DNA of 64,000 bases from Chlamydiales bacterium (GCA_030679955.1 JAUXSF010000033.1:80789-144788); one strand, 5' to 3'; positions 4,201-40,350 are shown, counted from the first letter of the stretch. Translations and numbers: made by a program. The notes: generated by a model from the sequence alone, not told the origin.

Positions 4201-4890
4201 ATGAAGATTATCATTTTGGCTGCGGGATTGGGCAGTCGTCTTGGAGCTGAGGAAGGGCCAAAGGCGCTTGTTCCTCTCATTAATGGCAAAACCATCCTTG
4301 AACATCAGCTCGATAACTTGGCACGTTACGTCAAAATTAGTGATGTCAGGGTTGTCGTGGGCTATCAGGAGGAGAAGATTCGCGCGCATTTTCCGCATCT
4401 TGCCTTTGTCCAGAACCCTCATTTTCGCACAGAAAATACATCTAAAAGCTTGCTAAGAGCCCTGCAGGACATCGAGAATGAGGATGTTTTGTGGCTCAAT
4501 GGCGATGTAGTTTTCAACCACTCTGTGATTGCCAAGTTATTGCTTAATCGGCGCAATTCGATGGTTGTCAATATCTCTATTGTTGGTGAAGAGGAAGTTA
4601 AGTACCGTTTAGACGGTGTGGGTTGTATTGTGGAGGTTTCTAAGACGGTGGATGATGCACCAGGAGAGGCGGTGGGCATTAATTACTTCACCGCTGCAGA
4701 TCTTAATCTGCTTAAAGAAGCATTGTCAGAGTGCAAACCCGACGATTATTTCGAGAAGGGTATTCAACTTTGTTTAGATGCTGCGGTCGACGTGTGGGCA
4801 GTTGAGGTTGTGCCGGAAGATACGGTGGAAATTGATTTCCCCGAAGATCTTGAAAAAGCTAATCGACTGATAAAGACCTGGGGCGAGTAA
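4201..4890 (+). CDS. NTP-transferase family protein, probable CDP-alcohol-forming cytidylyltransferase (LicC/MobA-like)
   Basis: 229 aa. N-terminal MKIIILAAGLGSRLG nucleotide-binding loop, NP.F..ENTSKSL and NGDVVF motifs. Confidence 0.75.
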   Translation: MKIIILAAGLGSRLGAEEGPKALVPLINGKTILEHQLDNLARYVKISDVRVVVGYQEEKIRAHFPHLAFVQNPHFRTENTSKSLLRALQDIENEDVLWLNGDVVFNHSVIAKLLLNRRNSMVVNISIVGEEEVKYRLDGVGCIVEVSKTVDDAPGEAVGINYFTAADLNLLKEALSECKPDDYFEKGIQLCLDAAVDVWAVEVVPEDTVEIDFPEDLEKANRLIKTWGE

Positions 4891-5959: not shown

Positions 5960-7026
5960 ACCGCAAGTTGTAGCCCTTCCAGGCCTTTTTGCAGGAATAT
6001 CGCTCGCTGCCTTGCTAACTCTTCCTGAGGTGTATTTTCTGCCACTTGAAAAAGCAGGTGTGCGCGGCGACAATTGAAGAACAGCTCATTGAGCTTGCTA
6101 TGAGTAATTCCTGAAATCCAATTAACGTCCAAGCCTAGTTTTAATAAGCTTAGAGCGTTAAGAGCTTCAAATGTTTCGATTTGATAAGAGTGTTTAAGTA
6201 GGCCATAGGCGCGGCCAACTTGATCTCTAATTTCTGATCTTGGCTGTGTTTGCAGGCGGGCGCGAAGGCCTTTTTCCTCGACTAGCAGATGAGTAGCGAA
6301 CGTTCTCACTTCGCTAAGAACTTTCTCTTCGGTGATTCCTAGCGTAAAGGCGTTGGAGATCATTACGACGTTACCCACAAAATCGGAGGACTCACTGCCG
6401 GTTAGACCTGCGATGTTGATAAACTCTGTTTTATGCTTTTCTACAATGGTCTCAAGCTGTTTGGTAAGAATGATGCCTGGTACTTGAAGGAAGGCGCGCG
6501 CTAAAAACCCGGTTCCAGCATGTGCGGGATTAGTGGTGAGGAAACCAAAAGTTGAAGAGAAGGCGTAATTGAGTGTTTTACCGACATCGGTTTCTAGTTT
6601 AACGAGGCTTTCAAACGACTTCTCAGGTTCGTCACCACAATCCATGCGGGTAAGTTCCAGATGGTCTTCCATATTGATTACGGCAAGGGTGGTGCCCTTT
6701 TTGTCGATGATAAAGCCTTCGCCGCGTTGAGCGTGGACGAATGGGTGAGTGGCTAAGAAGTGCTCAAAAAGCAATTCTTTGTCTCGAGCCGATGTTTCAT
6801 CCATCTTGAAGAGCTGAGGCTCTGAAAGGCCTTCGTAGTCCATTAGCTGTGTGCTGATAAGACCCATTATTTGCTTGCGGCTATCATCGTCAAGCTTACT
6901 AGGGAAATTGAATTTTTCCAGATTACGCAACAGCGTAAGCGTGGAGCAAATCCATATTGGATGGCATTGCGAGGCTCCGACGTTGGCCTGAGATAAAATA
7001 GCGGAGACTTTACTGTGGTCCGTCAT
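5956..7026 (-). CDS. mcsB: protein arginine kinase McsB (ATP:guanido phosphotransferase)
   Basis: 356 aa. Contains INMEDHLEL (the N.EDHL motif) and TTNPAHAGTGF (the CP.N.GTG-like motif) of guanidino kinases. Confidence 0.9.
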   Translation of the reverse strand: MTDHSKVSAILSQANVGASQCHPIWICSTLTLLRNLEKFNFPSKLDDDSRKQIMGLISTQLMDYEGLSEPQLFKMDETSARDKELLFEHFLATHPFVHAQRGEGFIIDKKGTTLAVINMEDHLELTRMDCGDEPEKSFESLVKLETDVGKTLNYAFSSTFGFLTTNPAHAGTGFLARAFLQVPGIILTKQLETIVEKHKTEFINIAGLTGSESSDFVGNVVMISNAFTLGITEEKVLSEVRTFATHLLVEEKGLRARLQTQPRSEIRDQVGRAYGLLKHSYQIETFEALNALSLLKLGLDVNWISGITHSKLNELFFNCRRAHLLFQVAENTPQEELARQRAIFLQKGLEGLQLAV

Positions 7027-10720: not shown

Positions 10721-13027
10721 TTAGCCGCCTAAAGCAAGCTCTGAAGGTCTAATAGACAAGCCGAACCATTGATTTTCTCTAGCGTGAGCGAGGATATCAA
10801 TCTCTGCCTCATCCCTAGCTCCCTTAGCATAGCCAGCTAGAATCGCCTTGCGCTGCTCGATGACCAGAGGGAATATGAACCTATTATGCATTTCTTTTCG
10901 GAAATCAGCGATGGTCTGGCTTGGATTTTTGACGCTGCTAAGTTTGAAGTTGGGGTCTGCGCAAAGGTTATAGGCAGTAAAACATGTCCATGTTCCACAT
11001 TGATAGCCGTCGCGCTGAACACTGCTTGATTTGTCACTAGCCCTAAAGAATTTGCCGAATCTCTTTGATAGGGTATTGGCATGTTCCTTGACTACCCTTG
11101 GGACGGCTTTTGCACCCATGCTGTCATAATGTTCGATGGTTCCCTTTTCTACATCGACGATGGCGACTGACCAGTGGCTTCTTCCATGATTAATAGGTAT
11201 GGGAAACCTTGCCAATGTCTTATGACCATTGACGGTGATTGTGCGGGCATTTTCATGGGTCTCGGTTAGGAATGCTAACATCAGATTTACACAGTCGTCG
11301 TTCAACCATTTCTGCCAGTTTTCATCCATAGCGCCGTTGGTAACTAGCGCGGCCTCGACATCACGCCGACCCTCTGCGGTTAATCCGGGGGAATTCCTTA
11401 AACGGCCTGTAACTGGGTCAAGTAATGTTGACCAATGGTGAGTGTTCAGAAAATCTAAATCTGCCTTAACGTCATTAACACGTTGTTCTACCTCAAAAGC
11501 CATAGCTTGCTCAAAGAAAGGGGGCTCTTCAGAGACCACGCGTTCATTGGTGAGGCGTGCGATTACCCACGACTCAATGTTAGCCAAATAGCTATCAATT
11601 GCCTCCAGTCGTGCACTTCTAACCCATTGGGCGCTATTCATTACATTACGTTCAACGGCGCTGCGCCATTCTTGCAGGGTGTCTTGCAGGCCTATCACAT
11701 CATCGATGGACTGTTCTGCGCTGGTCACCCAGTTTTCAATCTGATCAGAAAGGAGTCGCATAGCATCTTCGCCATAGGGTTTGATGTACTGTCTTTCGGA
11801 AACGACCGGCGCTCTCGCCGGTCTGGAAGATTGCAAGGCTCGACGCCACTCCTGGATATGTGAAGCCGATCTAGCAGAAAAATAAATGATGTTAGGGCGA
11901 TCTACATAGTCCAAGAAGCGTGTCATTGCTAGCTTATTGCCCGCGATAGCGGCCTCTTCATAGGCGGAAATGATTTCGCCGGCATTAATGCGAGCGCTTT
12001 GTGCCTGTAAGAGTTCGGCCTTTTCTATTAGCAAATCTGCGGTAGCTAAATCGGGGTCTTTTCTTAATAACTCTAGAGCCGCTTTAGGATCGGCCTTACA
12101 GCCTCTTCCGTATCGCAGGAAACGTACCACATTCAATTTAGCCTCTTGGTTACCCAATTCTGTGGCTTTCAAGAAGAATTGTAGGCTCTGAGCAAGATTA
12201 TGCCCCTTGGAGAATCGCTGGCCCGCTTCATACAGAGACTGGCTTGCATCGGGCAACAATTGCAGGGCGTAAGGGCTATCTAAGCTAGCTTTTAACAGCC
12301 AATCGTTTGGTTCCGAGGGGTGGTGCTTGGCAAAGCCTTCTGATAGGGCGATCATAGCGCCCAGATTCCCTTGGTTAGCTAATTTTGTAAGCGTGGGAAT
12401 ATCATTTGTTTTGCGAGCTTGGTAGTACGCGGCGATGGGATAACCGAGGTCGCTGAAACGTCTCCAAAATTGATCTAACGCGAGATCTTTGCCGAATATA
12501 CTCTTTGCGTGATCGTCTAATGTTTTAAGAGTTTCGGGATCGCCCAGGTCCAAGTCTCTGGAAGCGGTGAGCAACGCGTAGGCGGAATCAACAAAAGCTT
12601 GTTTATCGTAGAGTTCCTTGGGGTTGCCGACCGACGAGAAGAATTTGAACAGTTCATCGTAGACAGCATGTGTTAGATCTGCCGCAGATCCGTTCACATC
12701 ACCATGCCCCCATAGAGCCCTTCCTATAGAGGTTGTTTTGTTATAGTAAGAGGTTGAGAGGCCTTGGACGCGGTCCTTTAGCTCAATTCTGCTTTTAATA
12801 TCGTTGTAGCGGACCTTCAGCCTTTTATCCTGCTCAACCAGCTTGGTAATGATTTTAAAACTGTCACTAAGTTTGTTGGATCCTATCAGGCGGTCCCAGC
12901 AGCGACCCCATAGGCCGCGTTTTGCAATAACGACATTTGAGGAATAGTTTGTGCGTTGAATAACGAACTGATGTCCATTATTTAGTTTCTGTAGTGAATT
13001 TACTATTTTTTGTAGTCTATTAATCAT
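10721..13027 (-). CDS. Sel1/TPR-repeat protein with C-terminal Ulp1-like (peptidase C48, CE clan) protease domain; candidate deubiquitinase/deSUMOylase effector
   Basis: 768 aa. Catalytic signature in canonical order and spacing: HWSVAIVD (His), EHYDSMG (Asp), QRDGYQCGTW (Gln..Cys). Sel1-like repeats occur in residues about 200-330 (LANQGNLGAMIALSEGF..., ELGNQEAKLNVVRFLRYGRGCKADPKAALELL). Confidence 0.8.
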   Translation of the reverse strand: MINRLQKIVNSLQKLNNGHQFVIQRTNYSSNVVIAKRGLWGRCWDRLIGSNKLSDSFKIITKLVEQDKRLKVRYNDIKSRIELKDRVQGLSTSYYNKTTSIGRALWGHGDVNGSAADLTHAVYDELFKFFSSVGNPKELYDKQAFVDSAYALLTASRDLDLGDPETLKTLDDHAKSIFGKDLALDQFWRRFSDLGYPIAAYYQARKTNDIPTLTKLANQGNLGAMIALSEGFAKHHPSEPNDWLLKASLDSPYALQLLPDASQSLYEAGQRFSKGHNLAQSLQFFLKATELGNQEAKLNVVRFLRYGRGCKADPKAALELLRKDPDLATADLLIEKAELLQAQSARINAGEIISAYEEAAIAGNKLAMTRFLDYVDRPNIIYFSARSASHIQEWRRALQSSRPARAPVVSERQYIKPYGEDAMRLLSDQIENWVTSAEQSIDDVIGLQDTLQEWRSAVERNVMNSAQWVRSARLEAIDSYLANIESWVIARLTNERVVSEEPPFFEQAMAFEVEQRVNDVKADLDFLNTHHWSTLLDPVTGRLRNSPGLTAEGRRDVEAALVTNGAMDENWQKWLNDDCVNLMLAFLTETHENARTITVNGHKTLARFPIPINHGRSHWSVAIVDVEKGTIEHYDSMGAKAVPRVVKEHANTLSKRFGKFFRASDKSSSVQRDGYQCGTWTCFTAYNLCADPNFKLSSVKNPSQTIADFRKEMHNRFIFPLVIEQRKAILAGYAKGARDEAEIDILAHARENQWFGLSIRPSELALGG

Positions 13028-16727: not shown

Positions 16728-16785
16728 AGAGGTATAAATATACCGTTTGACTACTTTCCGGTCAACAACTAGGAATTCAAAGCCA

Positions 16786-16822
16786 AGACTCAGAGACGCA
16801 AAGGCGCAAAGAAGAACACTTT
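16786..16822. repeat. ACGCAAAGGCGC-family repeat (copy 2)
   Basis: ctcagagacgcaaaggcgcaaagaagaac, with the core acgcaaaggcgc at 16796-16807. Lies between tRNA-Gly and the pbp2 start. Confidence 0.65.
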
Positions 16823-16851
16823 TTTGTTCCTTTCGTTTATCTTATTTCGCG

Positions 16852-19800
16852 ATGAGAGCTTCTTCCTTTTCACATGTTCCGTTTAAGGCAACGCGCGTTC
16901 TGCACGTGGTCCTGATCGCCATGGCGCTGATTTTGCTGCGTGTCTGGCACTTGGCTGTCATCCAACATGAAGCTCGCGTCGAGGCGGCAGAAGCCCCTAC
17001 CAGGCGCGTGGTCATTGAGCCAGCCCGTCGAGCCTCTATTCGAGATCGCTTTGGGCTGCCTCTGGCAATTAACCGCGTTCAGTACAATGCGGCCATCGGC
17101 TACGCGCAAATAGGCGCTATACCGGCGGTGAAGTATGAGGCGGATGCTGACGGGAAGAAGGTAAGACGTTATAAGCGCCGCGAGCACATTCGTCAACTAT
17201 CTGAGCTGTTGGCGACGGAGTTGAACCTCAATGCCGATGAGCTAGAGGATCGTATTCACGCCGAAGCTGCTTTTTACGACCATGTTCCTTATGTCGTCAA
17301 AAAAGATATTTCCGAAAAGGAATATTATCGGTTGAAAATGCTCGAGATGTCTTGGCCGGGCTTGATTGCCCAGCGTGTTCCCAAAAGGCACTACCCACAA
17401 GGGAAGGTTGCTGGGGATGTTGTGGGATTTATGGGGGCAATCGATGCCCAAACCTATCAGAATATTCTTCAAGAGCGCAAAGTCCTACAGGCCTATGTAC
17501 GCTCACGCGATGCGGGGGAGGATCCTCCTCTTCCCAACCGAATGGAATCCCCCCAGGAGGTACGTGAGCGCCTCAGAGATATTGAAGAAATGGCCTATTC
17601 TATCAATGATCACATCGGAAAAGGTGGCGTAGAAGCCTATTTTGAAGAGTCTTTGCGCGGCTATCATGGAAAGAAGCGTTTTTACGTAGACTCCAAAGGT
17701 CACTATTTGCGCGAGCTTCCGGGGCAGAGACCCCCGATTCCTGGCAGGGGATTGACGTTAACGCTATCTTCAGAACTACAGCAATTTTCAGAGCAGTTGC
17801 TCGCACAAAATGACAAGCTGCGTCAAACGAGGGTTTTTAAGCCCCACCGCGAGGCAGAGGATGATCTCCCTGCTAAGGATCCCTGGATAAAAGGAGGCGC
17901 CATTGTAGCCCTTGATCCTAACAATGGCGAGGTGATTGCTTTGGCATCTTATCCAAGGTTTGATCCGAACGACTTTGTTCCCTCGGGCGATCCTGCAGTA
18001 GATAGTGGTAAAAGCGCTAATATTCGACGTTGGTTTGAAACCGAAAGTTATATTGCCGAGATGTGGGATGGAAAACGACCGCTTGCTCGCGAGACCTTTG
18101 ATGTGGAAAAAGGTTTTGTGGAAGAGGAACAAGATCTTAGTTGGGAACGTTATTTAGATCTAATATTGTATGATCAAGGTGATGCACGAAAGGGCTTACA
18201 GCGTGTTCGCAATGTAGAAAATGCTGTAGCAATTCAGAAGGCGGCGGAATCGCTGATAGCTTTAAGCGGTGGAGGGGATTTATGTTATTTACTAAACCTT
18301 CTTTACCAAGAAGAGGGGCATGTCACGCAAAAGTGTCCGTTGCCGGCAGCTGAACGCGAGCGTATCGAAGCCAACCTTAATATGAATGCCGATGATATTG
18401 AGAAGGCTAAAACGCAACTGGATCCTTTTCTAGGACGTATTAAGCATGCTTATGACAAAGTGCTGATTGTGGACTTTTGTCGGTTGGCGGTTAACGGCGA
18501 GCTTTTTAACGAAGAGTTATTAAACGTAGTTGGAAATCAGTCTTTGACGGCCTATAGAAGGCTTAACCAAGCTACAGTGAACTTGGAAGAAGTTACGTAC
18601 GCTATGGCTAAGGAGCTTTTTCACACTACGCTCTTTGTGGATTGGCGAGCGGAAAATGAGAAGTCTTTCCTAAAAGAGAAACGGCATCTAGAAAGGCTTG
18701 CAGGCAAGTATGCGCGGCCTTATACAGAATATTTAGATGCGAAAGAGAAAGAGCTCTTTCGAGACTTCTGGCAGGATCATTCATCAGATATCTTAATAGC
18801 TTTTCTACAAGGCAGACAAGCAGCGGGGCTGCCAGATATCTTCGCTACGCATTTTCGCTCTTGGCATCAGGAGTTAGCCTCCGGCGCCCATGCGGCCGTT
18901 CCATGGCGCTCTGACTATATTTATCTTCAAAAAGCGTTGAGAGGTATAGATCCATCTGTTGCACAGGCGTATTTAGCGTCCATGCGTTCATTTAAGCAGC
19001 TTACCCGTCCGTTATTTGGTCGCTATCGACAGCTTAGGACGGAGAAAGGGCAGCAGTTAGAACGTCATTTAGCCGCCGCGTTCTATCCTACCTATGGCTA
19101 TGGCTACGGGCGTTCCTTGGCATACCGTCAGGCAACTCCTCAGGGGTCGATATACAAGCTGGTGACTGCTTATGGCGCCTTAGTGCAGAGCTACCAGAGC
19201 GATCCCACCCAGCTGAATCCGCTGAAGATTATTGACCAGCCGATGAAGCTTAATGGGAATTGGATCGTCGGTTATACCATGGATGGTAAACCCATTCCAC
19301 AAGCATATAAGGGTGGAAATCTTCCCAGGACTTTAACCAAGAACATTGGCGAGATAGACATTGTTCGGGCTATTGAGGTTTCTTCCAACGCCTATTTCTC
19401 TCTTTTAGCCAGCGACTATTTGAGCAAACCTACAGACTTGGCAGATGCGGGAAGAGCTCTTTCTTATGGTGCCAAGACTGGTATCGCGCTACCAGGGGAA
19501 ATCAGCGGGCGTATTCCAACAGACTTGGAATATAATCGTGCAGGGCTATACAGCATGGCGATTGGGCAGCACTCTCTTGTTGTCACTCCTTTACAGACAG
19601 CAGTTATGTTTGCTACCATAGCTAATGGCGGTAAAGTTTTTGAGCCAAAAATTGTTCGTACCATGGGAGGAAGGGTTCCTTCGTCCAGCCTGGTCAATGA
19701 CTATAGCGAGAGCTTGTCGCTGGCCGGTATCGATTTCCCATTGTTTGTTAATACTCTTCCGGCGCGTCGTTTACCACCTCCGGAGCTGGTTCCTAGCGTT

Positions 19801-20232
19801 ATTAAACGACAGGTATTTATGCCTGCGCAGGTGCGAAGTATGCTGTTAGATGGCATGTTTCGTGTGGCTCACCGATATCAGAATCGAGCTGTTAAGGCTT
19901 TACAGCTCATGCCAGGTGATAATTCTCAAGCGATTCATGCTGTTAATAGTATGGGTGGTCAGATGGCTGGGAAGACAAGTACAGCGGAAATTGTGGAAAG
20001 TCTTGGTCCTGACCGGCAGATTGGCTCGCGAACCTATAACCATGTCTGGTTTGGATCAATTGTGTACGACAAAGATGGTGGCCAGGAAACTGTTTTTTAC
20101 GACTCCAAAGGCAAGCCAGAGCTTGTTGTTATCGTATTTCTGCGTTACGGTGCGGTCGGCAGCGATGCAGTGCCTTTGGCGGCACAAGTAGCAGCCAAAT
20201 GGCGCGAAGTCAAGCAGCGCGCCCTTCATTGA
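16852..20232 (+). CDS. pbp2: penicillin-binding protein 2 (class B transpeptidase), extended chlamydial-type
   Basis: TM anchor VLHVVLIAMALILLRVW. Transpeptidase motifs S-x-x-K (GSIYK), S-x-N (SSN) and K-T/S-G-like (GKTST). The length of about 1126 aa, with a large insertion between the N-terminal and transpeptidase domains, matches chlamydial PBP2. The start is set at ATG 16852 because the TTG 16747 extension runs over the intergenic repeat. Confidence 0.88.
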   Translation: MRASSFSHVPFKATRVLHVVLIAMALILLRVWHLAVIQHEARVEAAEAPTRRVVIEPARRASIRDRFGLPLAINRVQYNAAIGYAQIGAIPAVKYEADADGKKVRRYKRREHIRQLSELLATELNLNADELEDRIHAEAAFYDHVPYVVKKDISEKEYYRLKMLEMSWPGLIAQRVPKRHYPQGKVAGDVVGFMGAIDAQTYQNILQERKVLQAYVRSRDAGEDPPLPNRMESPQEVRERLRDIEEMAYSINDHIGKGGVEAYFEESLRGYHGKKRFYVDSKGHYLRELPGQRPPIPGRGLTLTLSSELQQFSEQLLAQNDKLRQTRVFKPHREAEDDLPAKDPWIKGGAIVALDPNNGEVIALASYPRFDPNDFVPSGDPAVDSGKSANIRRWFETESYIAEMWDGKRPLARETFDVEKGFVEEEQDLSWERYLDLILYDQGDARKGLQRVRNVENAVAIQKAAESLIALSGGGDLCYLLNLLYQEEGHVTQKCPLPAAERERIEANLNMNADDIEKAKTQLDPFLGRIKHAYDKVLIVDFCRLAVNGELFNEELLNVVGNQSLTAYRRLNQATVNLEEVTYAMAKELFHTTLFVDWRAENEKSFLKEKRHLERLAGKYARPYTEYLDAKEKELFRDFWQDHSSDILIAFLQGRQAAGLPDIFATHFRSWHQELASGAHAAVPWRSDYIYLQKALRGIDPSVAQAYLASMRSFKQLTRPLFGRYRQLRTEKGQQLERHLAAAFYPTYGYGYGRSLAYRQATPQGSIYKLVTAYGALVQSYQSDPTQLNPLKIIDQPMKLNGNWIVGYTMDGKPIPQAYKGGNLPRTLTKNIGEIDIVRAIEVSSNAYFSLLASDYLSKPTDLADAGRALSYGAKTGIALPGEISGRIPTDLEYNRAGLYSMAIGQHSLVVTPLQTAVMFATIANGGKVFEPKIVRTMGGRVPSSSLVNDYSESLSLAGIDFPLFVNTLPARRLPPPELVPSVIKRQVFMPAQVRSMLLDGMFRVAHRYQNRAVKALQLMPGDNSQAIHAVNSMGGQMAGKTSTAEIVESLGPDRQIGSRTYNHVWFGSIVYDKDGGQETVFYDSKGKPELVVIVFLRYGAVGSDAVPLAAQVAAKWREVKQRALH

Positions 20233-20239
20233 AAGACCC

Positions 20240-23176
20240 CTAGCAAGACATGACGTACGCGATGCGTTTGGTGAGGGATAGATTGTTGTAAAACTCGATG
20301 TCCTGCACCTTTTCGCCAGCAATAGTGACAGCGATGCGGCTAAATTGATGACAAAGGCTTTCCGCCTCTGCGCTTGTTGGAGGAGCGGAGTGCACCGCCA
20401 GGATCACATCGTATTTCTGCGATAAGCTATCAAGTAAATCACGGAAACGTTGGCTGTGCAACAGTTCATGCCCATGGACAGAGGTGCCGCCAGCTTCAAT
20501 GGAATCATATCCATCCAGAGTTGAAATTGTAGGCTTGGCGGCACTGCCTTCTAATACTTGAAGGAGTCCTGCCATTTGGGTCGAGGACTCTTGATCAAAC
20601 GATAGTCTTAGACGTAGTACCTTAAGGCCCTTTTTGGCAAGCAGAATGGCTAAGGATCTACTGTAGTCAACTCCACATCCAGTTAATAGCAGGACTTTTT
20701 TGTCTTGTGGGGCATTTACATCGCGGAACAAGTGTGCTGCCAAACGTCTAAGGGTGGTTAGTTGCTTCGGGTTTTCAAAGGGTCTATATTTGGCTTCTGA
20801 TTTACGCGGTGGCACATAGCCTGCGATATATTGCTTGGCTAGTCTTAGATTCGTTTCGGAAACCTCGATACCCCTCCTCAGTCCCATAGCCAGTGTGTAA
20901 ACGGCACCAAAACCGGCCCCGAGAATAAGTCCTAGCATTGCAAACATATGTAGCATAGGCCGCTTTGGAAGGACTGCTGGTATAGCTAAATCTAGTGGTG
21001 ACGATTGTATCGTTTCCAGGTGGTGCGAAATATTTTTGGTCTCAACTAGCTTGGTAACTTCTTCTACTATGGAGCCGTTGATTTTTGCCTGATGCTTAAT
21101 CATTTGTTCTGCGCCCCATTTTAAGGGCAGAGACGACATCTGCTGGTGGATATCTTTTAGGCACTGGTTTAAAAACCCGCGCTGTTCTTTAAGTTGGTCG
21201 ATATGAGAGCTTGTGTAGTCTTGAAGGTGTTTTTCTAACACACTGACTTGTTGGTGCGTCAGATCCAGCATCGCTCCCTGGATAGAATCAATTTTCTGCC
21301 CCAAAAAGTCTTCTCGTAGTCGTAATAACTGATTGGCTTGCTGGAGGTGGTATAACAGGAAGGCACGGCAATTATTCAGTTCTTCCTTAATACGATCCTG
21401 CTCTTTTGGGCTTCTTATGGTGATATCCTTAAGACTCATCGATAACACGCTGTAGCGTTCGATTAGTCCGTGGCTCACCGGATCTTTTAGGAGGCCGCTT
21501 AGGCTGCTAATTTCGAATGTTGGATCCGCAACTTGATCAATAATAAAGCCGTTTTGGCGGATTTCCCCTTGAGTGTCATTCAAGCGATAGTTGAGGTCCA
21601 GATAGATCGTGTTTGCAGTAGGCAGATCCATGCCTTGAAGCTGATCATCAACATGCTGTTGTTGTAAAGCTAGGCGCTCTTCCATTAAACGTTGATGCAC
21701 TTTCGACAAGCGTAGGTAATGATTTAGGTACCCTTTGAAGTGCGCCTTATGCTCATCCCAGGACTCATGGTTTGGACTTGAGTCAGACTGAAGTAGCTTG
21801 TTGTACCATAGCTTTAGCATGGGGCTGGAGTTATGAGAGAGCTCTTCTAAAAGAGTGGCCACGTCATCAGACTCTGCAAATTGATATAGATGGTTCATTC
21901 GGTCAATATCGTTATTTACCGCAAGGAGATTGGTGACTTGGCTCTCAAACTGTTCTTCAAATTGATTGGGCGCTGGTGAAGAGGTTTTTGACAGCGCCAG
22001 CACTAAACGGTCGCGACGTTGCTTGAGCTCATTTATTGTGGAGATGGTCTGACGAACCAGCTCGGGCAAGTCTTTAGAAGCTCCTAGGGTGTTTAGATAG
22101 CTTTCGGCATCGCGGTTTTTTTCCAGCCGACTAAGCTCTAAATCGATAGTGATGAGAGACTGTCGCAGTTTGGCTTTTTGCCCTTCTAAGACCGCAAGTT
22201 CCTTTTCTGAATCAATAATGCCTGAATTGGGAAGATCTTTAGAGAGCTGGCAGGCGTAGTCTACGATTAGTTTTTCCAGATTTTGATTGGACTCAAATCG
22301 TCTACGTTCTAGGTAGTCTAATTGCGCTCCCGCTACTTGCTTGTGATCTTCACGAAGGTAGCGTTGATAACCTTCCATCAAATCATTTAGCAACTCACTG
22401 GCTAGGAGGCGGTTGGAATGCGCTAAGGTCAACTTTAAGACCTTGGGGCTCTTTTCATCAGGTTTGATTGTTAGTCGATTTGTGAAGGTCTTTGCCGTGA
22501 ATTCTAAAGTGTCTAAATGAACGGCAAAGGACTTTCCAGATACGGATTTGTCATCCAATCGTTCAACTTGAAAGGAGTAATTATCCGTTTGGATAGGGCT
22601 TCCTAAATGGGCATGAGCGATCTCAGTCCCGAACTGGTCCTTAACTATGAAGGAGCTTTCGTCCGTAAATTCCAGCGTTAATTTTAGTGGGATCTCAGAC
22701 TGATAATCTATCTGTGTGAGTTTCAGCGTTGGTTTGGCATCAGTAAAGAGAGGCTCGCGTTGATGGGAAAAATAGGCCCGCTCGATCAAAAGATTGTCGC
22801 GAATGCAGGAGATTAAAGGTTGCGAATCTCTATTAATTTCATAGACTTGTCCCTGAAGGTTGTGTCGCTGGATCAGGGGCGCCCAGAGGCGGCGTGACTT
22901 CATGAGTGGAATGGTGTTTTCTTGCTGACCGTTAAGATTTCCAGTAAGCATGCCTAAAAAGCCGGACATTCCCCCAGAGCTATTGCCTTGCAGGCCTTTT
23001 TCTTGAAAGGAAGAGTCTGAAATATAAACGATCGGTTGAGTCAGTGCCCAAAAGGATAGTACGGATGCTCCTACCAATCCAGACAGGCCAATCAACCATT
23101 TTTTCCGACCTAGAAGACTGAATATATCTGACAGACTGACGGGTCGAGTTGAGGGAGAGTTGTCGTCTGCAACCAT
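20240..23176 (-). CDS. polysaccharide co-polymerase (PCP-2a/Wzc-like) with a degenerate C-terminal BY-kinase-like domain
   Basis: 978 aa. Wzz-type N-terminus (LSDIFSLLGRKKWLIGLSGLVGASVLSFWAL), a very long coiled-coil periplasmic region, and a second TM (MFAMLGLILGAGFGAVYTLAMGL). The C-terminal P-loop-fold region has Walker A as TGCGVDYS, A' as RLSFD and B as VHSAPP. There is no terminal Tyr cluster. Confidence 0.75.
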   Translation of the reverse strand: MVADDNSPSTRPVSLSDIFSLLGRKKWLIGLSGLVGASVLSFWALTQPIVYISDSSFQEKGLQGNSSGGMSGFLGMLTGNLNGQQENTIPLMKSRRLWAPLIQRHNLQGQVYEINRDSQPLISCIRDNLLIERAYFSHQREPLFTDAKPTLKLTQIDYQSEIPLKLTLEFTDESSFIVKDQFGTEIAHAHLGSPIQTDNYSFQVERLDDKSVSGKSFAVHLDTLEFTAKTFTNRLTIKPDEKSPKVLKLTLAHSNRLLASELLNDLMEGYQRYLREDHKQVAGAQLDYLERRRFESNQNLEKLIVDYACQLSKDLPNSGIIDSEKELAVLEGQKAKLRQSLITIDLELSRLEKNRDAESYLNTLGASKDLPELVRQTISTINELKQRRDRLVLALSKTSSPAPNQFEEQFESQVTNLLAVNNDIDRMNHLYQFAESDDVATLLEELSHNSSPMLKLWYNKLLQSDSSPNHESWDEHKAHFKGYLNHYLRLSKVHQRLMEERLALQQQHVDDQLQGMDLPTANTIYLDLNYRLNDTQGEIRQNGFIIDQVADPTFEISSLSGLLKDPVSHGLIERYSVLSMSLKDITIRSPKEQDRIKEELNNCRAFLLYHLQQANQLLRLREDFLGQKIDSIQGAMLDLTHQQVSVLEKHLQDYTSSHIDQLKEQRGFLNQCLKDIHQQMSSLPLKWGAEQMIKHQAKINGSIVEEVTKLVETKNISHHLETIQSSPLDLAIPAVLPKRPMLHMFAMLGLILGAGFGAVYTLAMGLRRGIEVSETNLRLAKQYIAGYVPPRKSEAKYRPFENPKQLTTLRRLAAHLFRDVNAPQDKKVLLLTGCGVDYSRSLAILLAKKGLKVLRLRLSFDQESSTQMAGLLQVLEGSAAKPTISTLDGYDSIEAGGTSVHGHELLHSQRFRDLLDSLSQKYDVILAVHSAPPTSAEAESLCHQFSRIAVTIAGEKVQDIEFYNNLSLTKRIAYVMSC

Positions 23177-23186
23177 GATATGTGTC

Positions 23187-24239
23187 CTAGTTCATGAAAA
23201 TTTTATAACATCCCATCCCGGTTTGGAAGCAGTTCATCGACGGCAATAGCTGGCTGATCCAGCGGTTCCAGCGCGTAATAGGAGTTTCTACAACATACAC
23301 CGTATCGCCCGGCATAAGCAAGAGACTTTCATTAGGAAGTTGTGTGATATGACACCAATTTAATTCGTAAACCTTGGGGCAAATAGTGCCTCCACGGATT
23401 ACCTGGATGCGATGTCGGTCTCCTGTATAAGGAATGCCACCCGCAGCCACTAATGCTTCACGCAAGCTGGTGAAACCATAATAGAGGTTTACGGCTTTTG
23501 GACATCCAACCTCTCCCATTACCGTGACAACCGCATCGCGCGCATCTGCTATGAAAATTTTATCGCCAGGACGCATAACAATGTTATTGCACATATCGCC
23601 TTCGTTTAGGAGACGGTGCAGGTCGATCGCTAAGGGGCATCCGCAGCGTGTCACGTAGCTCATAAAGAGGTTGGCATGGGTAGGAACGCGTGCTTGTGAG
23701 AGCACATCAAAGAGGCGTATTTTGCCGTTCACAGGGATACTAGGCATGGAAACTAGGCCAGCCAGCTCAACTTTGTGAGAGGGTCTTTCTTTGTAATTGA
23801 TGAAGACTTCAATGCCTTTCACATGCTGCTGGTACTTACAGGAAAGGGCATCATGAGCTTCTTGCAACGTTAAACCTGCTACGATTACAGGTTCCATATC
23901 CGGAAGATCAATGCGTCCTTGATATACTCTAAAGCCTACATATTTGTTGATGGTCTCGATTGCTTCCATCAAATCTTTGCGTGAAGGGTGGTAGACCGCT
24001 ACGCTTAGGACATCGTCCTCGCAGATGACATCTTCAAACTCGTCCATAGCACAGTCTGGAACTTCCATCAGCTCATGGCCAGTCATTTCGACGATCGAGA
24101 GTTTGCCTTGGCGAATCTTATAGCTGTCCGTTACGAATTCATCGACATGATGAAGACAGTAACAGCACTCCATGTTTGATCCGCAAGAGCCAAAGAGGAG
24201 GGGCAGGGCACCTAATAAAATAAGACTATAGTAACGCAA
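23187..24239 (-). CDS. outer-membrane polysaccharide export lipoprotein (Wza-like; Poly_export plus SLBB domains)
   Basis: 350 aa. Lipobox LLFGSCGS. Contains GRIDLPDMEPVIVAGLTLQEAHDAL (Poly_export pattern). Repeated PGDKIFI and PGDTVYV motifs are typical of SLBB domains. Confidence 0.75.
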   Translation of the reverse strand: MRYYSLILLGALPLLFGSCGSNMECCYCLHHVDEFVTDSYKIRQGKLSIVEMTGHELMEVPDCAMDEFEDVICEDDVLSVAVYHPSRKDLMEAIETINKYVGFRVYQGRIDLPDMEPVIVAGLTLQEAHDALSCKYQQHVKGIEVFINYKERPSHKVELAGLVSMPSIPVNGKIRLFDVLSQARVPTHANLFMSYVTRCGCPLAIDLHRLLNEGDMCNNIVMRPGDKIFIADARDAVVTVMGEVGCPKAVNLYYGFTSLREALVAAGGIPYTGDRHRIQVIRGGTICPKVYELNWCHITQLPNESLLLMPGDTVYVVETPITRWNRWISQLLPSMNCFQTGMGCYKIFMN

Positions 24240-24321
24240 GAGATTCTCCTATCCGGGAAGGCGTTAATTTTTACCCGAATAGCCTTTAATCTGAAAGGGG
24301 AAAAACGTCTTTAGCCTCCAA

Positions 24322-24397
24322 ATGGACCTTATGGACTCGATGGACCTATTATTTTGTCCATAAGGTCTATAAGGTCCATCGAGTCCATAAGCTCCAT
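24322..24397. repeat. GTCCATAAG-family 25-bp inverted repeat (hairpin) upstream of the suf operon
   Basis: atggaccttatggactcgatggacc (24322-24346) is the reverse complement of ggtccatcgagtccataagctccat (24373-24397) with 1 mismatch. The loop itself contains gtccataaggtctataa. Confidence 0.85.
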
Positions 24398-24596
24398 AAA
24401 TAGGATGATGTATTTCTAATTGCCTTCAAAACTTTCCATTTAATATATAAAATGCTACTATTAAGATGGATGCATATTGGTTTGTGCTTTGGAGTATAGC
24501 TCCATTCTGGTCCAAATTTTGTTGATGCTTCTATTGATGCAAACATGTTAGCCTAAGGGCCAATTTAACGGCTTCAGAGGTAAAAAGGGTAATTTA

Positions 24597-26057
24597 ATGG
24601 AGACAGAGCGTTTGGACTCCAATACCGAAGAGATTCTACGAGAGCAATCGGACTATAAGTACGGCTTTGTAACCGAAGTCGAGATGGACCGTATTCCCAA
24701 GGGGCTGAGCGAGGATGTCATTCGTTTGATATCCGAGAAGAAGAAAGAGCCCGATTGGATGCTTGAATTCCGCCTTAAGGCTTACCACCGTTGGCTAGAG
24801 CACCAGGAGCCCCATTGGGCTAATGTATCTCATGCCAAAATCGACTATCAAAATCTTAGCTACTATTCCGCGCCGAAGAAAAAGGCGACCCTCAATAGCT
24901 TAGACGAAGTTGATCCTGAAATTCTGAAGACTTTTGAGCGCTTGGGCATTCCTCTGGACGAGCAGAAGAAGCTGGCCAATGTCGCAGTGGATGTTGTTTT
25001 TGACTCGGTTTCGATCCATACAACATTTCAGAAGAAGCTAGAAGAAGCCGGCGTTGTGTTGTGCTCTATTTCCGAAGCTATCCACCGTTACCCAGATCTG
25101 GTGCGTAAATACATGGGTAGCGTTGTACCGATTGGTGATAACTTTTACGCAACACTGAATTCTGCTGTCTTTTCCGACGGATCCTTTGTTTATGTTCCGA
25201 AAGGCGTCAAGTGCCCGATGGAGCTATCGACTTACTTCCGCATTAACGACAAAGAGTCCGGTCAGTTTGAGCGTACGTTGATTATTGCCGAGGAAAGCTC
25301 ATTTGTTAGCTACTTAGAGGGGTGTACTGCTCCTGCCTTTGATAATAATCAGTTGCATGCTGCTGTTGTAGAGCTTATTGCGCTCGACAATGCCGAGATT
25401 AAGTACGCTACTGTCCAGAACTGGTACTCGGGCGATCCTAAGACCGGCAAGGGTGGCATTTATAACTTTGTGACCAAGCGCGGCCGCTGTGCAGGTGTGA
25501 ACTCCAAAATTTCCTGGACACAGGTCGAAGTGGGCGCTGCTATTACCTGGAAGTACCCAAGCTGTATCCTGCAGGGCGATAACTCGGTGGGCGAATTTTA
25601 TTCTGTCGCCTTGACGACCGGAGCTATGCAGGCCGACACCGGCACCAAGATGATTCATTTGGGCAAAAACACTCGTTCGACAATTATCTCGAAAGGTATT
25701 GCTGCTGACCGCTCGCATAATAGCTACAGAGGTCTAGTGCAGGTTGTAGGACGTGCAGAAGGCGCTCGAAATTACACGCAGTGCGACTCGATGCTTGTTG
25801 GTGCTGAGTGCTCCGCGAATACCTTCCCTTACATTGAGGTAGCCAACTCTACTAGCCAAGTAGAGCATGAGGCATCTACCTCTAAGATGAACGAAGAACA
25901 GCTTTTCTATTTCCAATCTCGCGGTCTTTCACAAGAAGATGCGATTAATATGATCGTTAACGGCTTCTGTAAAGAAGTCATTCGTGAACTGCCGTTGGAA
26001 TTTGCCGTAGAGGCACAAAAACTCCTTACCTTAAAGTTAGAACACTCGGTCGGATAA
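24597..26057 (+). CDS. sufB: Fe-S cluster assembly scaffold SufB
   Basis: 486 aa. Typical SufB C-terminal beta-helix region ([15 protein letters not shown]..., [22 protein letters not shown]). Followed by sufC, sufD and sufS. Confidence 0.95.
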
Positions 26058-26062
26058 TCAGT

Positions 26063-26827
26063 ATGCTAGAAATCAATAATTTGACGGCCTCGGTCGATGA
26101 TAACCTCATTCTGCGTGGACTTTCATTAACGGTTAAGAAAGGCGAAATACACGCTATCATGGGTCCTAATGGCGCTGGCAAGTCTACTTTGGCAAAAGTG
26201 ATTGCTGGACACCCCGCCTATGAGGTTATTGAAGGTGAAGTCTTGCTGGATGGCAAGAACTTGCTAGAGATGGATCCCCCAGAGCGCGCTCATGCCGGGC
26301 TTTTTATGAGCTTCCAATATCCAGTCGAAATTCCAGGCGTCAGCAACAGCCAATTTTTACGCAGCGCTTACAATGCCAAGAGAAAGGCGTTGAGCCAACC
26401 AGAGCTAGACGAAGCGGATTTCGAAGCTTTCCTCGACGAAAAGATGGCGATGATGGAAATTAAGCCTGAATTCAAAGCACGTAACGTCAACGAAGGCTTT
26501 TCTGGCGGTGAAAAGAAACGCAATGAGATTCTGCAGCTCGCTGTCTTGATGCCTGAGTTTGCCATCTTAGACGAAACTGACTCTGGTCTAGACATCGACG
26601 CTATACGCGTTGTATCAGCGGGTGTTAATAAGATCATGAACCCAAATATGGGTCTTTTGATGATCACTCACTATCAGCGCTTACTTAACTTCATCAAGCC
26701 AGATTATGTACACGTGATGATGGATGGTCGCATTGTTCAGTCGGGTGGTCCTGAGTTCGCTTTAGAGCTCGAAAGCAAAGGTTACGATTGGCTACAGCCT
26801 ACCGACCGGGAGGTTGCAGGATGCTAG
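26063..26827 (+). CDS. sufC: Fe-S cluster assembly ATPase SufC
   Basis: 254 aa. Walker A GPNGAGKST, ABC signature FSGGEKKRNEI, Walker B FAILDETDSGLD. Confidence 0.95.
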   Translation: MLEINNLTASVDDNLILRGLSLTVKKGEIHAIMGPNGAGKSTLAKVIAGHPAYEVIEGEVLLDGKNLLEMDPPERAHAGLFMSFQYPVEIPGVSNSQFLRSAYNAKRKALSQPELDEADFEAFLDEKMAMMEIKPEFKARNVNEGFSGGEKKRNEILQLAVLMPEFAILDETDSGLDIDAIRVVSAGVNKIMNPNMGLLMITHYQRLLNFIKPDYVHVMMDGRIVQSGGPEFALELESKGYDWLQPTDREVAGC

Positions 26828-36849: not shown

Positions 36850-37734
36850 TTAGCGGAACGTTAGCACTAGTCCTTCGATCAATAGGGTCCAACCATCCAA
36901 CATCACCAGCAAGAAGAGCTTTAGCGGCATAGATATTGTAACGGGTGAAAGCATCATCATACCCATCGCCAGCAGGATGTTGGACGTCACAAGGTCGATA
37001 ACGAAGAAGGGTATGTAGATCAGTACTCCGATCTCGAAGGCATCCTTAAGCTGTCCCGTGATGTACGCGGGTACGAGGATGATAAAGTCTTCGGGGGACA
37101 GACTTTCTTTATGTATTTCTGGCAGAATGCGGTATGCCATACGGTAGAACAGCACTTGGTGTTTCACTGCAGAGTTACGCTTCAAGAACAGGCGAAGGGG
37201 TTCTCTGGTCTTTTCTGCGATATTGAGGACGTAGGCAGATGATTCGGTCTGGAAAAGGGATTCAGGAGCCGTCGATTCGTTAACAGCTTCCTGGCCAGCC
37301 TCATACATCAGTAGTACTGTTGGATACATAATGTACATGGTGAGCATGAAGGCGACGCCGTTGATGATCTGGTTTGGCGGTGCTTGCTGCACACCAAGGG
37401 CACTTCGAAGCAGTGAGAGAACTACGACGATCTTCAAGAACGATGTCAGCAACATGACGATAAAAGGCAGCAGAGCCATCAAGGATAGCGCAACCGCTTG
37501 CGTAATCAAGCTGGGGTGGTATGGTGCTTCAAATGGTGTTGATTCGATGATCTGAGCCCCAGTAGGATCCAGACTACGTTTCAGTTTAGCGTCGGCGTCT
37601 TCCTTCTGAGTTTTCTTGGCGTCTTTGACTTGTGCTTGTGGATATAGGTCGCTAGGAACGAACCACAAGACGACAAAAGCCAACGTTAGGCTGAGAATGA
37701 ATCGCAGTGAAAAGACCCTGTTGAGGTATGGCAT
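36850..37734 (-). CDS. sctR: type III secretion export apparatus protein SctR (CdsR/YscR)
   Basis: 294 aa with an N-terminal extension as in chlamydial CdsR. Contains FLKIVVVLSLLRSALG and the GMMMLSP.....PLKL FliP/SctR motifs. Confidence 0.9.
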   Translation of the reverse strand: MPYLNRVFSLRFILSLTLAFVVLWFVPSDLYPQAQVKDAKKTQKEDADAKLKRSLDPTGAQIIESTPFEAPYHPSLITQAVALSLMALLPFIVMLLTSFLKIVVVLSLLRSALGVQQAPPNQIINGVAFMLTMYIMYPTVLLMYEAGQEAVNESTAPESLFQTESSAYVLNIAEKTREPLRLFLKRNSAVKHQVLFYRMAYRILPEIHKESLSPEDFIILVPAYITGQLKDAFEIGVLIYIPFFVIDLVTSNILLAMGMMMLSPVTISMPLKLFLLVMLDGWTLLIEGLVLTFR

Positions 37735-37745
37735 AACTGATAATC

Positions 37746-38375
37746 CTAGGTCATCATAGATTTAAAAGCCTGTTCCAGTATTTCCCATTGCTTATCGAGC
37801 TGAGCGTTGATAATCCCTGCTTCTGTCTCGATGATGCAGCCTCCTGGCTTTACATCGTCGTTAGCTCGGATAGATAAGGACTCAAGTTTCTCAAACACGG
37901 CGAAGAGGTCTGCTCGGTGTTTCTCAACGTTTTGGAGGTCCTTAGGGCATACATGAACGATTACTTGCTTGCTTTGTTTCACGGACTTTAACTTGCTAGC
38001 GACGATATCTACGATAGCTGTTTCGGACAGTTCGATTTCACGTCCTACAATCTTCTTAGCAGCCTTTAGGGCCACAGGGATAATCATCTTCTCTGTAGCT
38101 TTGTTAACATTAGCCATCTCGGCTTCGAGCTCAGCCATATGTCCAGCCCATTGAGCGAAGCCCTCTTGAAAGCCTTCTTGTTGAGCCTGCACCTTCAGTT
38201 TTTCACATTCGATGGCTACTTCTTCTTTGTATTGGTCAACTTCTTTGTAGGCGCGCTCGAGGACCTGGGCAGCTGTTATTGCTTCAGAAAATTCTTTCCT
38301 GGGAATGACTTTGGCATTTGGAGCTGCATGAACGCTGGCTCCTGAAAGTAGTGTGAAGAACTTTTTCTTTCCCAC
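37746..38375 (-). CDS. sctL: type III secretion stator protein SctL (CdsL/YscL, FliH-like)
   Basis: 209 aa. Charged coiled-coil N-terminal half with a FliH-like C-terminal half. Sits between the CT560-like gene and sctR, as in Chlamydia. GTG start. Confidence 0.75.
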   Translation of the reverse strand: MGKKKFFTLLSGASVHAAPNAKVIPRKEFSEAITAAQVLERAYKEVDQYKEEVAIECEKLKVQAQQEGFQEGFAQWAGHMAELEAEMANVNKATEKMIIPVALKAAKKIVGREIELSETAIVDIVASKLKSVKQSKQVIVHVCPKDLQNVEKHRADLFAVFEKLESLSIRANDDVKPGGCIIETEAGIINAQLDKQWEILEQAFKSMMT

Positions 38376-38378
38376 GTA

Positions 38379-39239
38379 TTACTCGTTTTTACTAAAATAA
38401 TTAATCAGACCGATCACTTGTCTTCTGAGCTCGTTGGCGACATTGTCCAGTGGCTGTGTGTTGCAGTTTTGCTCGATAATGCCAGCTCGTCCTGTATCCA
38501 AAGTATGTAGAATGTACCAGAGAAGGTCTTTGTTTTGTCCTGAAAGCGCTCTTCCTAGACGAATAAGGCCGCGTAGGTGGATTTGCTGTCGTAGCTTTGC
38601 CGCATCACCGCCCCATTGTTTAAGATCGAGGCGCGGAACGGTCAGCTTTTCGCGTTCTTTATAGAGGTAGAAATCCAGGAATTTGCGTTCTTCGTCAGTC
38701 AAGCACTTCAGGATAGTCTCTTGATGTGTTTTGTGAACCACGAGGCGAATTTCTTGAGCCAGGTCTCGAATACCCAACAGGTCAATTAGACGTTGTAGTT
38801 GTGTCTTGGAGTATCCAGCTAACGGATTTAGTAGGGAGGATGGAAGGTAGGCAGGGGGTAGACGTTCCTGCGGGCTTATCTGCTTAAAGAGTCCATCCAA
38901 AAGATACTGTCGCAATGGTGGTACTGGTTTTGCCGATGGCATAGGAAGCTTAAGTAAACGGCAAATCCCTTGCGTTTGGGGCAATGATAACGCGGCTATC
39001 GTTGGAGCCTGTAGAGCCTTTGGAAGTTTTTGAACGCTTGGTGCTAACCACGAATAGTGGATGGCCGATACGCGTTCGAAGGGCTGTGCGAGCAGGGGCG
39101 TAGGATCAGCAGCGGCGATGTCGGTCTGCTTCAGATTGTCTTGATATTTGGAGGGGAGTGAACGGATGAGCTCTTCCGACGAAGCGCCGTAATAGCGATT
39201 GAGTAGCACCCGAAACATCATCCAGCTTTTTGGTTCCAT
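38379..39239 (-). CDS. T3SS-associated hypothetical protein (positional equivalent of C. trachomatis CT560; possible SctK-like)
   Basis: 286 aa. Lies between sctJ and sctL, with a 3-nt gap to sctL. Only the synteny argument supports the call. Confidence 0.5.
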   Translation of the reverse strand: MEPKSWMMFRVLLNRYYGASSEELIRSLPSKYQDNLKQTDIAAADPTPLLAQPFERVSAIHYSWLAPSVQKLPKALQAPTIAALSLPQTQGICRLLKLPMPSAKPVPPLRQYLLDGLFKQISPQERLPPAYLPSSLLNPLAGYSKTQLQRLIDLLGIRDLAQEIRLVVHKTHQETILKCLTDEERKFLDFYLYKEREKLTVPRLDLKQWGGDAAKLRQQIHLRGLIRLGRALSGQNKDLLWYILHTLDTGRAGIIEQNCNTQPLDNVANELRRQVIGLINYFSKNE

Positions 39240-39275
39240 TTTTCCTCTTTAGGCGTCGTAAGAAGCTGTCAGGTG

Positions 39276-40271: not shown

Positions 40272-40350
40272 AACGTTAAGTACCATATGTGATGAATATG
40301 AACATGACGGTAGCACATTTAGGTCGTTATTGCAAAAGGCCATTTTCTAG

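Follow-up and report, generated by a model that had tools for sequence, protein, structure and literature searches.

A Wza- and Wzc-like protein pair with a degenerate kinase domain, the putative envelope-spanning part of a surface-polysaccharide exporter in environmental Chlamydiae

Analysis of a 64,000-nucleotide stretch of DNA from a Chlamydiales bacterium (GCA_030679955.1, JAUXSF010000033.1:80789-144788), hereafter the window, revealed two neighbouring genes on the minus strand, encoding a 350-aa Wza-like protein (23187-24239) and a 978-aa Wzc-like protein (20240-23176). The cytoplasmic domain of the latter has the predicted fold of a bacterial tyrosine kinase (BY-kinase) without its catalytic motifs. 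Homology, fold, motif loss, conservation and gene neighbourhood suggest, with a probability of roughly 0.62, that the pair is the envelope-spanning part of a surface-polysaccharide exporter of environmental Chlamydiae, in which the Wzc-like partner would act as a phosphorylation-independent scaffold, with a leaning towards an ABC transporter of the Wzm/Wzt type as the source of the polymer. The two open reading frames (ORFs) are co-oriented and separated by 10 nt.

The Wza-like protein exceeds the Pfam cut-offs for SLBB_2 (44.5 bits, cut-off 27), Wza_C (PF18412; 33.8 bits, cut-off 25.8), Poly_export (PF02563; 31.3 bits, cut-off 28) and SLBB (29.7 bits, cut-off 27), and matches the NCBIfam polysaccharide export protein PRK15078 at 1.8e-25. 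A profile built from 15 chlamydial homologues aligns to Wza of PDB entry 2J58 (E=1.7e-29, residues 60-344 against 58-352), covering domains D1-D4 and the C-terminal membrane helix. AGGAG stands ahead of the TTG start codon of the gene, and the N-terminus of the protein, MRYYSLILLGALPLLFGSC, ending in LFGSC, resembles a lipoprotein signal, as judged by eye; at the lipobox position, relatives carry LSSC, LASC, VTGC or LTSC, likewise read from the sequence. According to the scheme of bioRxiv 10.1101/2022.02.11.480155, the protein is, by its sequence features, a class-1 outer-membrane polysaccharide export (OPX) lipoprotein. More than 1,400 relatives are present in databases, the best 120 of them at 56-98% identity. 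The lipoprotein would probably form a multimeric channel, the C-terminal helices of which cross the outer membrane. Cysteine is abundant in it (15 residues, 4.3%), C217, C287 and C201 being among the conserved ones, a richness that recalls the disulfide-cross-linked chlamydial outer-membrane complex.

In the 978-aa protein, no Pfam family reached its cut-off, Wzz, GNVR and WZC_N included (WZC_N, E=0.17), and the single sequence gave weak NCBIfam matches to Wzc (1e-7) and EpsG (1e-5) and similarly weak PDB matches. The profile of its 36-member family, when compared with the solved Wzc structures (7nhr, 9exq), gave E=3e-37 in two blocks, namely, family residues 24-299 against Wzc 28-286 and 660-929 against 342-644. 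The initial annotation of this DNA had described a Wza-like lipoprotein next to a polysaccharide co-polymerase (PCP) of type 2a, and both assignments hold; profile searches of the kind it had proposed recovered the Wza side through Poly_export and SLBB, but failed for the PCP side at Pfam cut-offs, Wzc being reached only through the family profile. An AlphaFold2 (AF2) model of the full-length protein (pLDDT 71, pTM 0.36) had as its top PDB matches in Foldseek full-length Wzc proteins, including the Wza-Wzc complex 9r68 (E=4e-24).

The first transmembrane helix (TM1, residues 26-46; 23039..23101, minus strand) is represented by a hydropathy peak at 27-46 and an AF2 helix at 26-46, and the second (TM2, residues 742-768; 20873..20953, minus strand) by a hydropathy peak at 741-766 and AF2. 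Between them, residues 51-253 are modelled as an alpha/beta and beta-rich base, and residues 256-722 as helices. TM2 is preceded by the Pro/Gly-rich PCP motif D729-x-A-x-P733-x3-P737-x2-P740 ... G749 ... G753, which aligns to 'DNAVTDPNPVRPKK' of Wzc and in which D729, A731, P737, P740, G749 and G753 are 86-100% conserved among 51 family members. The protein is a Wzc homologue of PCP-2a architecture, with TM1, a periplasmic domain, TM2 and a cytoplasmic domain. Assignment to PCP-3 (KpsE) is contradicted by the length of 978 aa, by the C-terminal BY-kinase-fold domain and by the best homologues, which are Wzc and not KpsE. Relative to Wzc, profile alignment and AF2 place an all-helical periplasmic insertion at residues ~300-659 (21200..22279, minus strand); since about 360 family residues face about 55 in Wzc, the insertion amounts to ~305 aa. 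Internal duplication was ruled out as its source, as no repeat was found and hhalign probabilities were at most 29%. The enlarged helical domain would be expected to extend up to the OPX protein.

The cytoplasmic domain (residues 770-978; 20243..20869, minus strand) was delimited by AF2, Foldseek and motif alignment. Its separate AF2 model has pLDDT 92 and pTM 0.90, built on a shallow alignment of eight rows (seven for the full-length model), and the top 50 PDB matches in Foldseek were all BY-kinase domains (Wzc, Etk, BceF, CapAB and VpsO; E ~1e-10, TM 0.62-0.79). The motifs were placed by alignment to two canonical BY-kinase domains. The P-loop remnant TGCGVDYS (residues 832-839; 20660..20683, minus strand) lies on Walker A, where GEGKS (GxxxxGK[ST]) is replaced by GCGVD(Y)S, lacking Lys, in a loop shorter by 4-5 residues. 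In Walker A' (hhhhDxDxR), aligned with VLRLRLSFD (RLSFD, residues 857-861), other residues stand at the two Asp positions and in place of the Arg. In Walker B (hhhhDtPP), aligned with ILAVHSAPP within YDVILAVHSAPP (VHSAPP, residues 928-933), the Asp position is occupied by Val, and across the family by Val, Ile, Ala, Thr or Ser. The protein stops ~45 residues short of the canonical Tyr-cluster tail, and the last 25 residues contain 0-2 Tyr in 51 family sequences. Of the residues of the ring-contact motif EX2RX2R, only the initial Arg remains (R810, 96% conserved), with Thr in place of the Glu and Ala in place of the other Arg. The three degenerate motifs and the missing terminal Tyr cluster reported in the initial annotation are thus present in the translation as described. 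With the Lys gone from Walker A, the aspartates gone from A' and B, and no Tyr tail, autophosphorylation is not possible, and the protein is a pseudokinase to which regulation by Tyr autophosphorylation cannot apply, as had also been proposed.

An intact P-loop, with Lys followed by Ser or Thr, was found in none of the 146 representatives and in none of the 51 members derived from loci; GK[ST] tripeptides present in 21 representatives, within the C-terminal 240 residues, were considered as intact P-loops and rejected, as they align at the start of strand beta-1 and not at the loop. The family consensus at this position is G-x-G-P-D-Y-S (D 66%, Y 70%, S 64%). By these sequences, the pseudokinase state is a property of the whole family and is not peculiar to the source genome. 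A sequencing artefact is excluded, principally because the same degenerate motifs occur in every relative examined and also because identical records exist: the protein is 100% identical to NCBI Q8K75_09440 ('MAG: hypothetical protein' [Chlamydiales bacterium], from a metagenome-assembled genome, MAG), and the identical protein and gene order are present on a Logan contig of run SRR13727519, which may share the data of the MAG. The restoration of Walker A by a corrected sequence, envisaged in the initial annotation as a possible refutation, was not borne out.

The C-terminal domain is conserved on a par with the rest of the Wzc-like protein, which, together with R810, points to selection at the sequence level. 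By analogy with known pseudokinases, the dead domain would be a scaffold that holds or guides oligomerization without Tyr phosphorylation, and assembly would proceed independently of phosphorylation. The domain is missing from a few relatives (L006, L021, P0007 and P0185); in loci L006:3466-5784 and L021:8983-11262 the PCP stops just past TM2, with lengths of 772 and 759 aa, and the PCP gene of L006 lies just 244 nt from pbp2. In L045:9039-12049, the PCP is divided between two ORFs (691 and 307 aa), the second of which carries the pseudokinase. This reflects either an assembly error or frameshift, or a natural system of two parts, a PCP-2 and a separate pseudokinase like EpsV/EcpK.

A scan of GTDB, with one genome per species, yielded 122 Wza relatives, the best 80 of which were used for locus counts. 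The labels of these 80 loci are Chlamydiae, Parachlamydiaceae, Waddliaceae (including Waddlia), Protochlamydia and similar, with the exception of several 'uncultured bacterium' MAGs and one 'Verrucomicrobia' MAG. The latter (L062, JAEYWL010000087.1, 'Verrucomicrobia bacterium') contains a chlamydial-type Wza/PCP pair with sufC-like and rodA genes, and is either a mis-binned chlamydial contig or a sign that the family reaches other bacteria of the Planctomycetes-Verrucomicrobia-Chlamydiae group. A PCP-like ORF lies directly downstream of Wza in 79 of the 80 loci and has 830-1,000 aa when complete, some being split or cut at a contig end; in L053:9005-10262, Wza is present and no PCP ORF was found ahead of the suf genes. 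Close relatives of both proteins (PCP 50%, Wza 76% identical) are encoded in L001/L004 on CAVQMM010000001.1 ('uncultured Chlamydiae bacterium'), a single contig of 3,904,876 bp, unusually large for a chlamydial genome.

The full scan of 1.84 billion representatives with the PCP family profile gave 708 clusters (50% identity) at E<1e-30, and the best 150 matches were nearly all full length. The impression of a tiny family, given by a shared-word search with the single protein that returned eight relatives, was refuted by the profile scan and by the genome context of Wza; the shared-word search reached no further with the 36-sequence alignment. In IMG, a relative of 88% identity is automatically annotated as 'tyrosine-protein kinase Etk/Wzc'.

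The gene pbp2 was found within 8 kb of the pair in 18 of the 80 loci and suf genes in 19; in L059, L066, L067, L070 and L081 the pair stands between the two, as in the window, and L006 has pbp2 and, where the contig ends, part of sufB. Named Chlamydia species contribute no locus to the best 80; the MAG of L063 bears the submitter label 'uncultured Chlamydiaceae bacterium'. In Table 2 of Heinz et al. 2009 (PMC2811131), a cluster 'Wza - polysaccharide export proteins' is listed for Parachlamydiaceae and other bacteria, and not for Chlamydiaceae. On these two sources, the statement in the initial annotation that Chlamydia has no Wza agrees with the record for Chlamydiaceae. The distribution and the recurring pbp2/pair/suf flanks indicate that the pair with its dead kinase is old and conserved and not a local insertion. 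Loss is the simpler explanation for the lack of it in Chlamydiaceae.

Apart from pbp2 and suf, the recurrent neighbours of the pair are glycan genes, at least one of which was found within 8 kb in 36 of the 80 loci. Nine loci of the Parachlamydiaceae type have the order UPF0242 - Wzm - Wzt (with Wzt_C) - Wzy_C-like - Wza - PCP, followed in most by a family-2 glycosyltransferase (GT2). Loci of the Waddliaceae type have the order RmlA/B/C/D-like - GT2 - x - Wza - PCP, and in further loci GT2, S-adenosylmethionine-dependent methyltransferase or acyltransferase_3 genes adjoin the pair. The ABC ATPases adjoining the pair in L014 and L015 were considered as Wzt and taken off the count, being of the ZnuC type (znuABC operon).

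The window itself contains genes, annotated by Pfam and NCBIfam, for Wzm, an ABC-2 permease (61219-62049, plus strand), and Wzt, an ABC ATPase with Wzt_C (62046-63320, plus strand). They are 44-50% identical over the full length to the pair-adjacent Wzm/Wzt of the nine loci and, judged by this similarity, are their orthologues. Directly upstream lie genes of two family-2 glycosyltransferases (59483..61212, plus strand; Pfam Glycos_transf_2, NCBIfam EPS-type), putatively linked to the pair, and a WavE-like gene also precedes Wzm/Wzt. From gene neighbourhood, the window Wzm/Wzt are candidate inner-membrane exporters feeding the pair. The polymer would probably be built on the cytoplasmic face by GT2 enzymes, in some lineages from rhamnose-type precursors, and the Wzm/Wzt transporter would carry it across the inner membrane and hand it over to the Wza/PCP pair. 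Synthesis by GT2 enzymes with supply through Wzm/Wzt is a leaning, at about even odds. The neighbourhood favours Wzm/Wzt, and the types of the components, class-1 OPX and PCP-2a, favour a Wzx/Wzy route. According to bioRxiv 10.1101/2022.02.11.480155, class-1 OPX/PCP-2a pairs are normally Wzx/Wzy-dependent, and capsules of ABC transporters usually use class-2 (KpsD-like) OPX with PCP-3.

For environmental Chlamydiae as a group, a hybrid, envelope-spanning exporter can be proposed only tentatively, in which an O-antigen-type Wzm/Wzt delivers the polymer to a Wzc-derived, phosphorylation-independent PCP with an enlarged periplasmic domain and to a class-1 Wza, producing a capsule or exopolysaccharide (EPS) layer lost by Chlamydiaceae as they adapted to animals. 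Rather unlikely, in our judgement, is a classical Wzx/Wzy-dependent, group-1-like pathway, in which the Wzy_C-like protein would be the polymerase, Wzx would be encoded elsewhere and Wzm/Wzt would serve a separate O-antigen or lipopolysaccharide (LPS) route. A class-1 OPX with PCP-2a architecture is the hallmark of such pathways, and the Wzy_C-like polytopic protein adjoins the pair in 12 loci; however, its Wzy_C score of 24.2 falls short of the Pfam threshold of 31.7 and the family is indistinguishable from WaaL ligases, the recurrent or polytopic genes lying within 8 kb of the pair in the 80 loci include no Wzx-type flippase, and Wzm/Wzt are the sole glycan exporters seen beside the pair. 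That the C-terminal domain is still an enzyme, either a non-canonical kinase or ATPase acting through D-Y-S or a partner in trans of a stand-alone BY-kinase, is very unlikely. The conservation of G-x-G-P-D-Y-S, E904, Y922 and D923 implies selection on the former active-site region, but no member has the Lys, either A' aspartate, the Asp of Walker B or the Tyr cluster, an acidic residue lies within the P-loop, the recurrent neighbours in the 80 loci include no gene for a kinase or phosphatase, and some members are devoid of the whole domain.

Hardly any credence is given to the reading of the initial annotation, an accessory module of one lineage that was inserted between pbp2 and the suf operon, or to its possible arrival by horizontal transfer. 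In the window, the pair is indeed situated between pbp2 and sufB, and Chlamydiaceae are reported without Wza (PMC2811131). Against an insertion, the pair, often with its flanks, occurs in many families of environmental Chlamydiae, the same pbp2/suf arrangement recurs in the five loci named above, GC content over the pair (0.45-0.49) is like that of the flanks, and no mobile-element genes flank the pair in the window. The term 'accessory' likewise had to be abandoned, given at least 122 GTDB species genomes with Wza and a Wzc-like gene beside it in 79 of the 80 loci. Equally remote is a non-capsular role tied to the cell-wall and division machinery, with the pair travelling with pbp2, mreC and rodA-like genes. 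It would account for the 18 loci with pbp2 within 8 kb, for the recurrence of mreC (six loci in its cluster; L011, L034, L054) and for rodA/ftsW in L062, but pbp2, mreC and rodA belong to a conserved backbone of housekeeping genes, the neighbours that recur specifically are GT2, Rml-like, Wzm/Wzt, Wzy_C-like, acyltransferase and methyltransferase genes, and both proteins keep every structural hallmark of polysaccharide exporters.

Several points weigh against the reading of the pair as a Wzm/Wzt-fed exporter with a scaffold-type PCP. The surface polysaccharide is a prediction from gene content. The confidence of the full-length AF2 model (pLDDT 71, pTM 0.36) is only moderate, and the two canonical kinases in the alignment used for the C-terminal domain may bias its predicted fold. 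This domain is not indispensable, since it is absent from L006, L021, P0007 and P0185, and the conserved D-Y-S in the former P-loop could point to another ligand or partner. A hand-over from Wzm/Wzt would be atypical, because class-1 OPX and PCP-2a normally belong to Wzx/Wzy systems; the nine Wzm/Wzt-linked loci may represent one ancestral arrangement in a single clade; and Wzm/Wzt with the Wzy_C-like protein, possibly WaaL, could form a separate O-antigen/LPS route. The ABC genes, adjacent to the pair in loci of the Parachlamydiaceae type, are 37 kb away from it in the window.

Comparison with known systems showed a likeness of parts to the group-1 capsule translocon Wza-Wzc of E. coli K30 (PDB 2J58, 7NHR, 9R60-9R6B): a class-1 OPX lipoprotein with Poly_export, SLBB and Wza_C; a partner with TM1, an alpha/beta and helical periplasmic domain, the Pro/Gly motif, TM2 and a cytoplasmic P-loop-fold domain; and adjacent, co-oriented genes. 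Unlike K30 Wzc, the chlamydial protein has neither a Lys in Walker A nor the aspartates in A' and B nor a Tyr cluster; its P-loop is shorter by 4-5 residues, and it carries the additional ~305-aa helical periplasmic region; its OPX partner is Cys-rich, no Wzb phosphatase, Wzx or clear Wzy was found near the pair, and the host is obligately intracellular. Fused PCP-2 proteins with a degenerate kinase, namely, S. meliloti SMc01795, M. japonicum Mlr8439 and V. vulnificus VV1_2305, were listed by Cuthbertson 2009, as cited in PMC12004946. As far as they are described there, they share with the chlamydial protein a single polypeptide of a PCP-2 part and a BY-kinase-like domain without catalytic residues; they belong to another phylum and are probably of independent origin, and the chlamydial family is set apart, by description and not by sequence comparison, by its extended periplasmic domain and its own G-x-G-P-D-Y-S.

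A phosphorylation-independent scaffold model was put forward for the BY pseudokinases EcpK and HfsB (Blocher 2025, PMC12004946). EcpK of M. xanthus (partner EpsV) and HfsB of C. crescentus (partner HfsA) likewise have the BY-kinase fold without Walker motifs or Tyr tail, but are stand-alone proteins docking onto a kinase-less PCP-2, whereas the chlamydial domain is fused, with L045 (691 + 307 aa) as a possible exception. By predicted fold, motif loss and association with PCP-2, the chlamydial protein fits this class of pseudokinases. A likeness to the KpsMT-KpsE-KpsD (group-2 capsule) and Wzm/Wzt O-antigen exporters lies in the nine related loci, in which an ABC-2 permease and an ATPase are genomically tied to OPX and PCP; KpsE differs as a short PCP-3 (~380 aa) without a cytoplasmic domain, and KpsD as a class-2 OPX with a GfcC module. 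To our knowledge, classical Wzm/Wzt systems use neither OPX nor PCP.

In the window, the pair is flanked by pbp2 (16747-20232, plus strand), which is convergent with the Wzc-like gene, the stop codons being 7 nt apart, and by sufBCDS (24597-29365, plus strand), divergent from the Wza-like gene across a spacer of 357 nt; frr-pyrH-tsf-rpsB are located past pbp2. The spacer (24240..24596), read from the sequence, presumably holds the promoter of the pair; a consensus scan gave promoter-like sites no commoner than chance and, in this region, none on the strand of the pair, and a terminator scan gave nothing exceeding chance. The PBP2 protein has 1,161 aa, much longer than a typical PBP2, with ~600 residues between the dimerization domain (91-243) and the best-matching transpeptidase stretch (867-1108). 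Directly 3' of sufS, three successive ORFs on the plus strand (467, 460 and 542 aa; 29492-34155) are without Pfam match, and only the middle one has a homologue, in one related locus (L003). A type III secretion block lies at 35673-40343 (SctT/Bac_export_1, SctR/FliP, SctL/FliH, SctJ); in L003:12857-17287, such a block abuts the PCP gene where pbp2 would be, so that the junction is rearranged.

Other regions of the window contain further genes of interest. A small operon at 47466-50242, encoding a phosphatase of the haloacid dehalogenase family, two paralogues of sugar-1-phosphate nucleotidyltransferase and an unknown 218-aa ORF, may supply precursors of the glycan pathway. A TagF-like gene of the CDP-glycerol glycerophosphotransferase family (4859-6073, minus strand) lies beside mcsB, as in the 3.9-Mb relative (L001:15057-16163), and is adjoined by a small nucleotidyltransferase gene (4201-4890, plus strand); a teichoic-acid-type polymerase is unexpected for a chlamydia. 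A polyol-phosphate route of the TarI/TarJ/TagF type at 4.2-10.6 kb was considered and dropped, the dehydrogenase being an aldehyde reductase of the Ahr type and the nucleotidyltransferase generic. A 768-aa protein (10721-13027) with the catalytic domain Ulp1/Peptidase_C48 resembles eukaryote-like deubiquitinases/deSUMOylases, a type used as effectors. A 1,835-aa RHS-repeat protein with DUF6531 is encoded together with two following small ORFs without family match at 51836-57343, a possible polymorphic toxin and immunity locus.

Fused PCP-2 proteins with a degenerate kinase and scaffold-type BY pseudokinases (PMC12004946), as well as Wza in Parachlamydiaceae (2009), have already been described. 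The unannotated chlamydial PCP family of 708 clusters, the ~305-aa helical insertion in its periplasmic domain and the repeated linkage of the pair to Wzm/Wzt, Wzy_C-like, GT2 and rhamnose genes are new; a literature search found no paper on a chlamydial Wzc/PCP or on a capsule of Parachlamydiaceae. A family annotated as hypothetical at NCBI and without Pfam match thereby receives a name. Chlamydiae are usually regarded as free of a capsule. Retention of the pair in 79 of the 80 loci, often amid glycan genes, argues for a high-molecular-weight surface polysaccharide as an old trait of the phylum outside Chlamydiaceae. The Wzc kinase, long dead and yet mostly retained, is a good test case for the phosphorylation-independent scaffold model, and the pair may be an example of a PCP-2a and a class-1 OPX working with an ABC transporter. 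A polymer of this kind would matter for how the cells survive away from the host and are taken up by amoebae, and for how the envelope of the elementary body is built.

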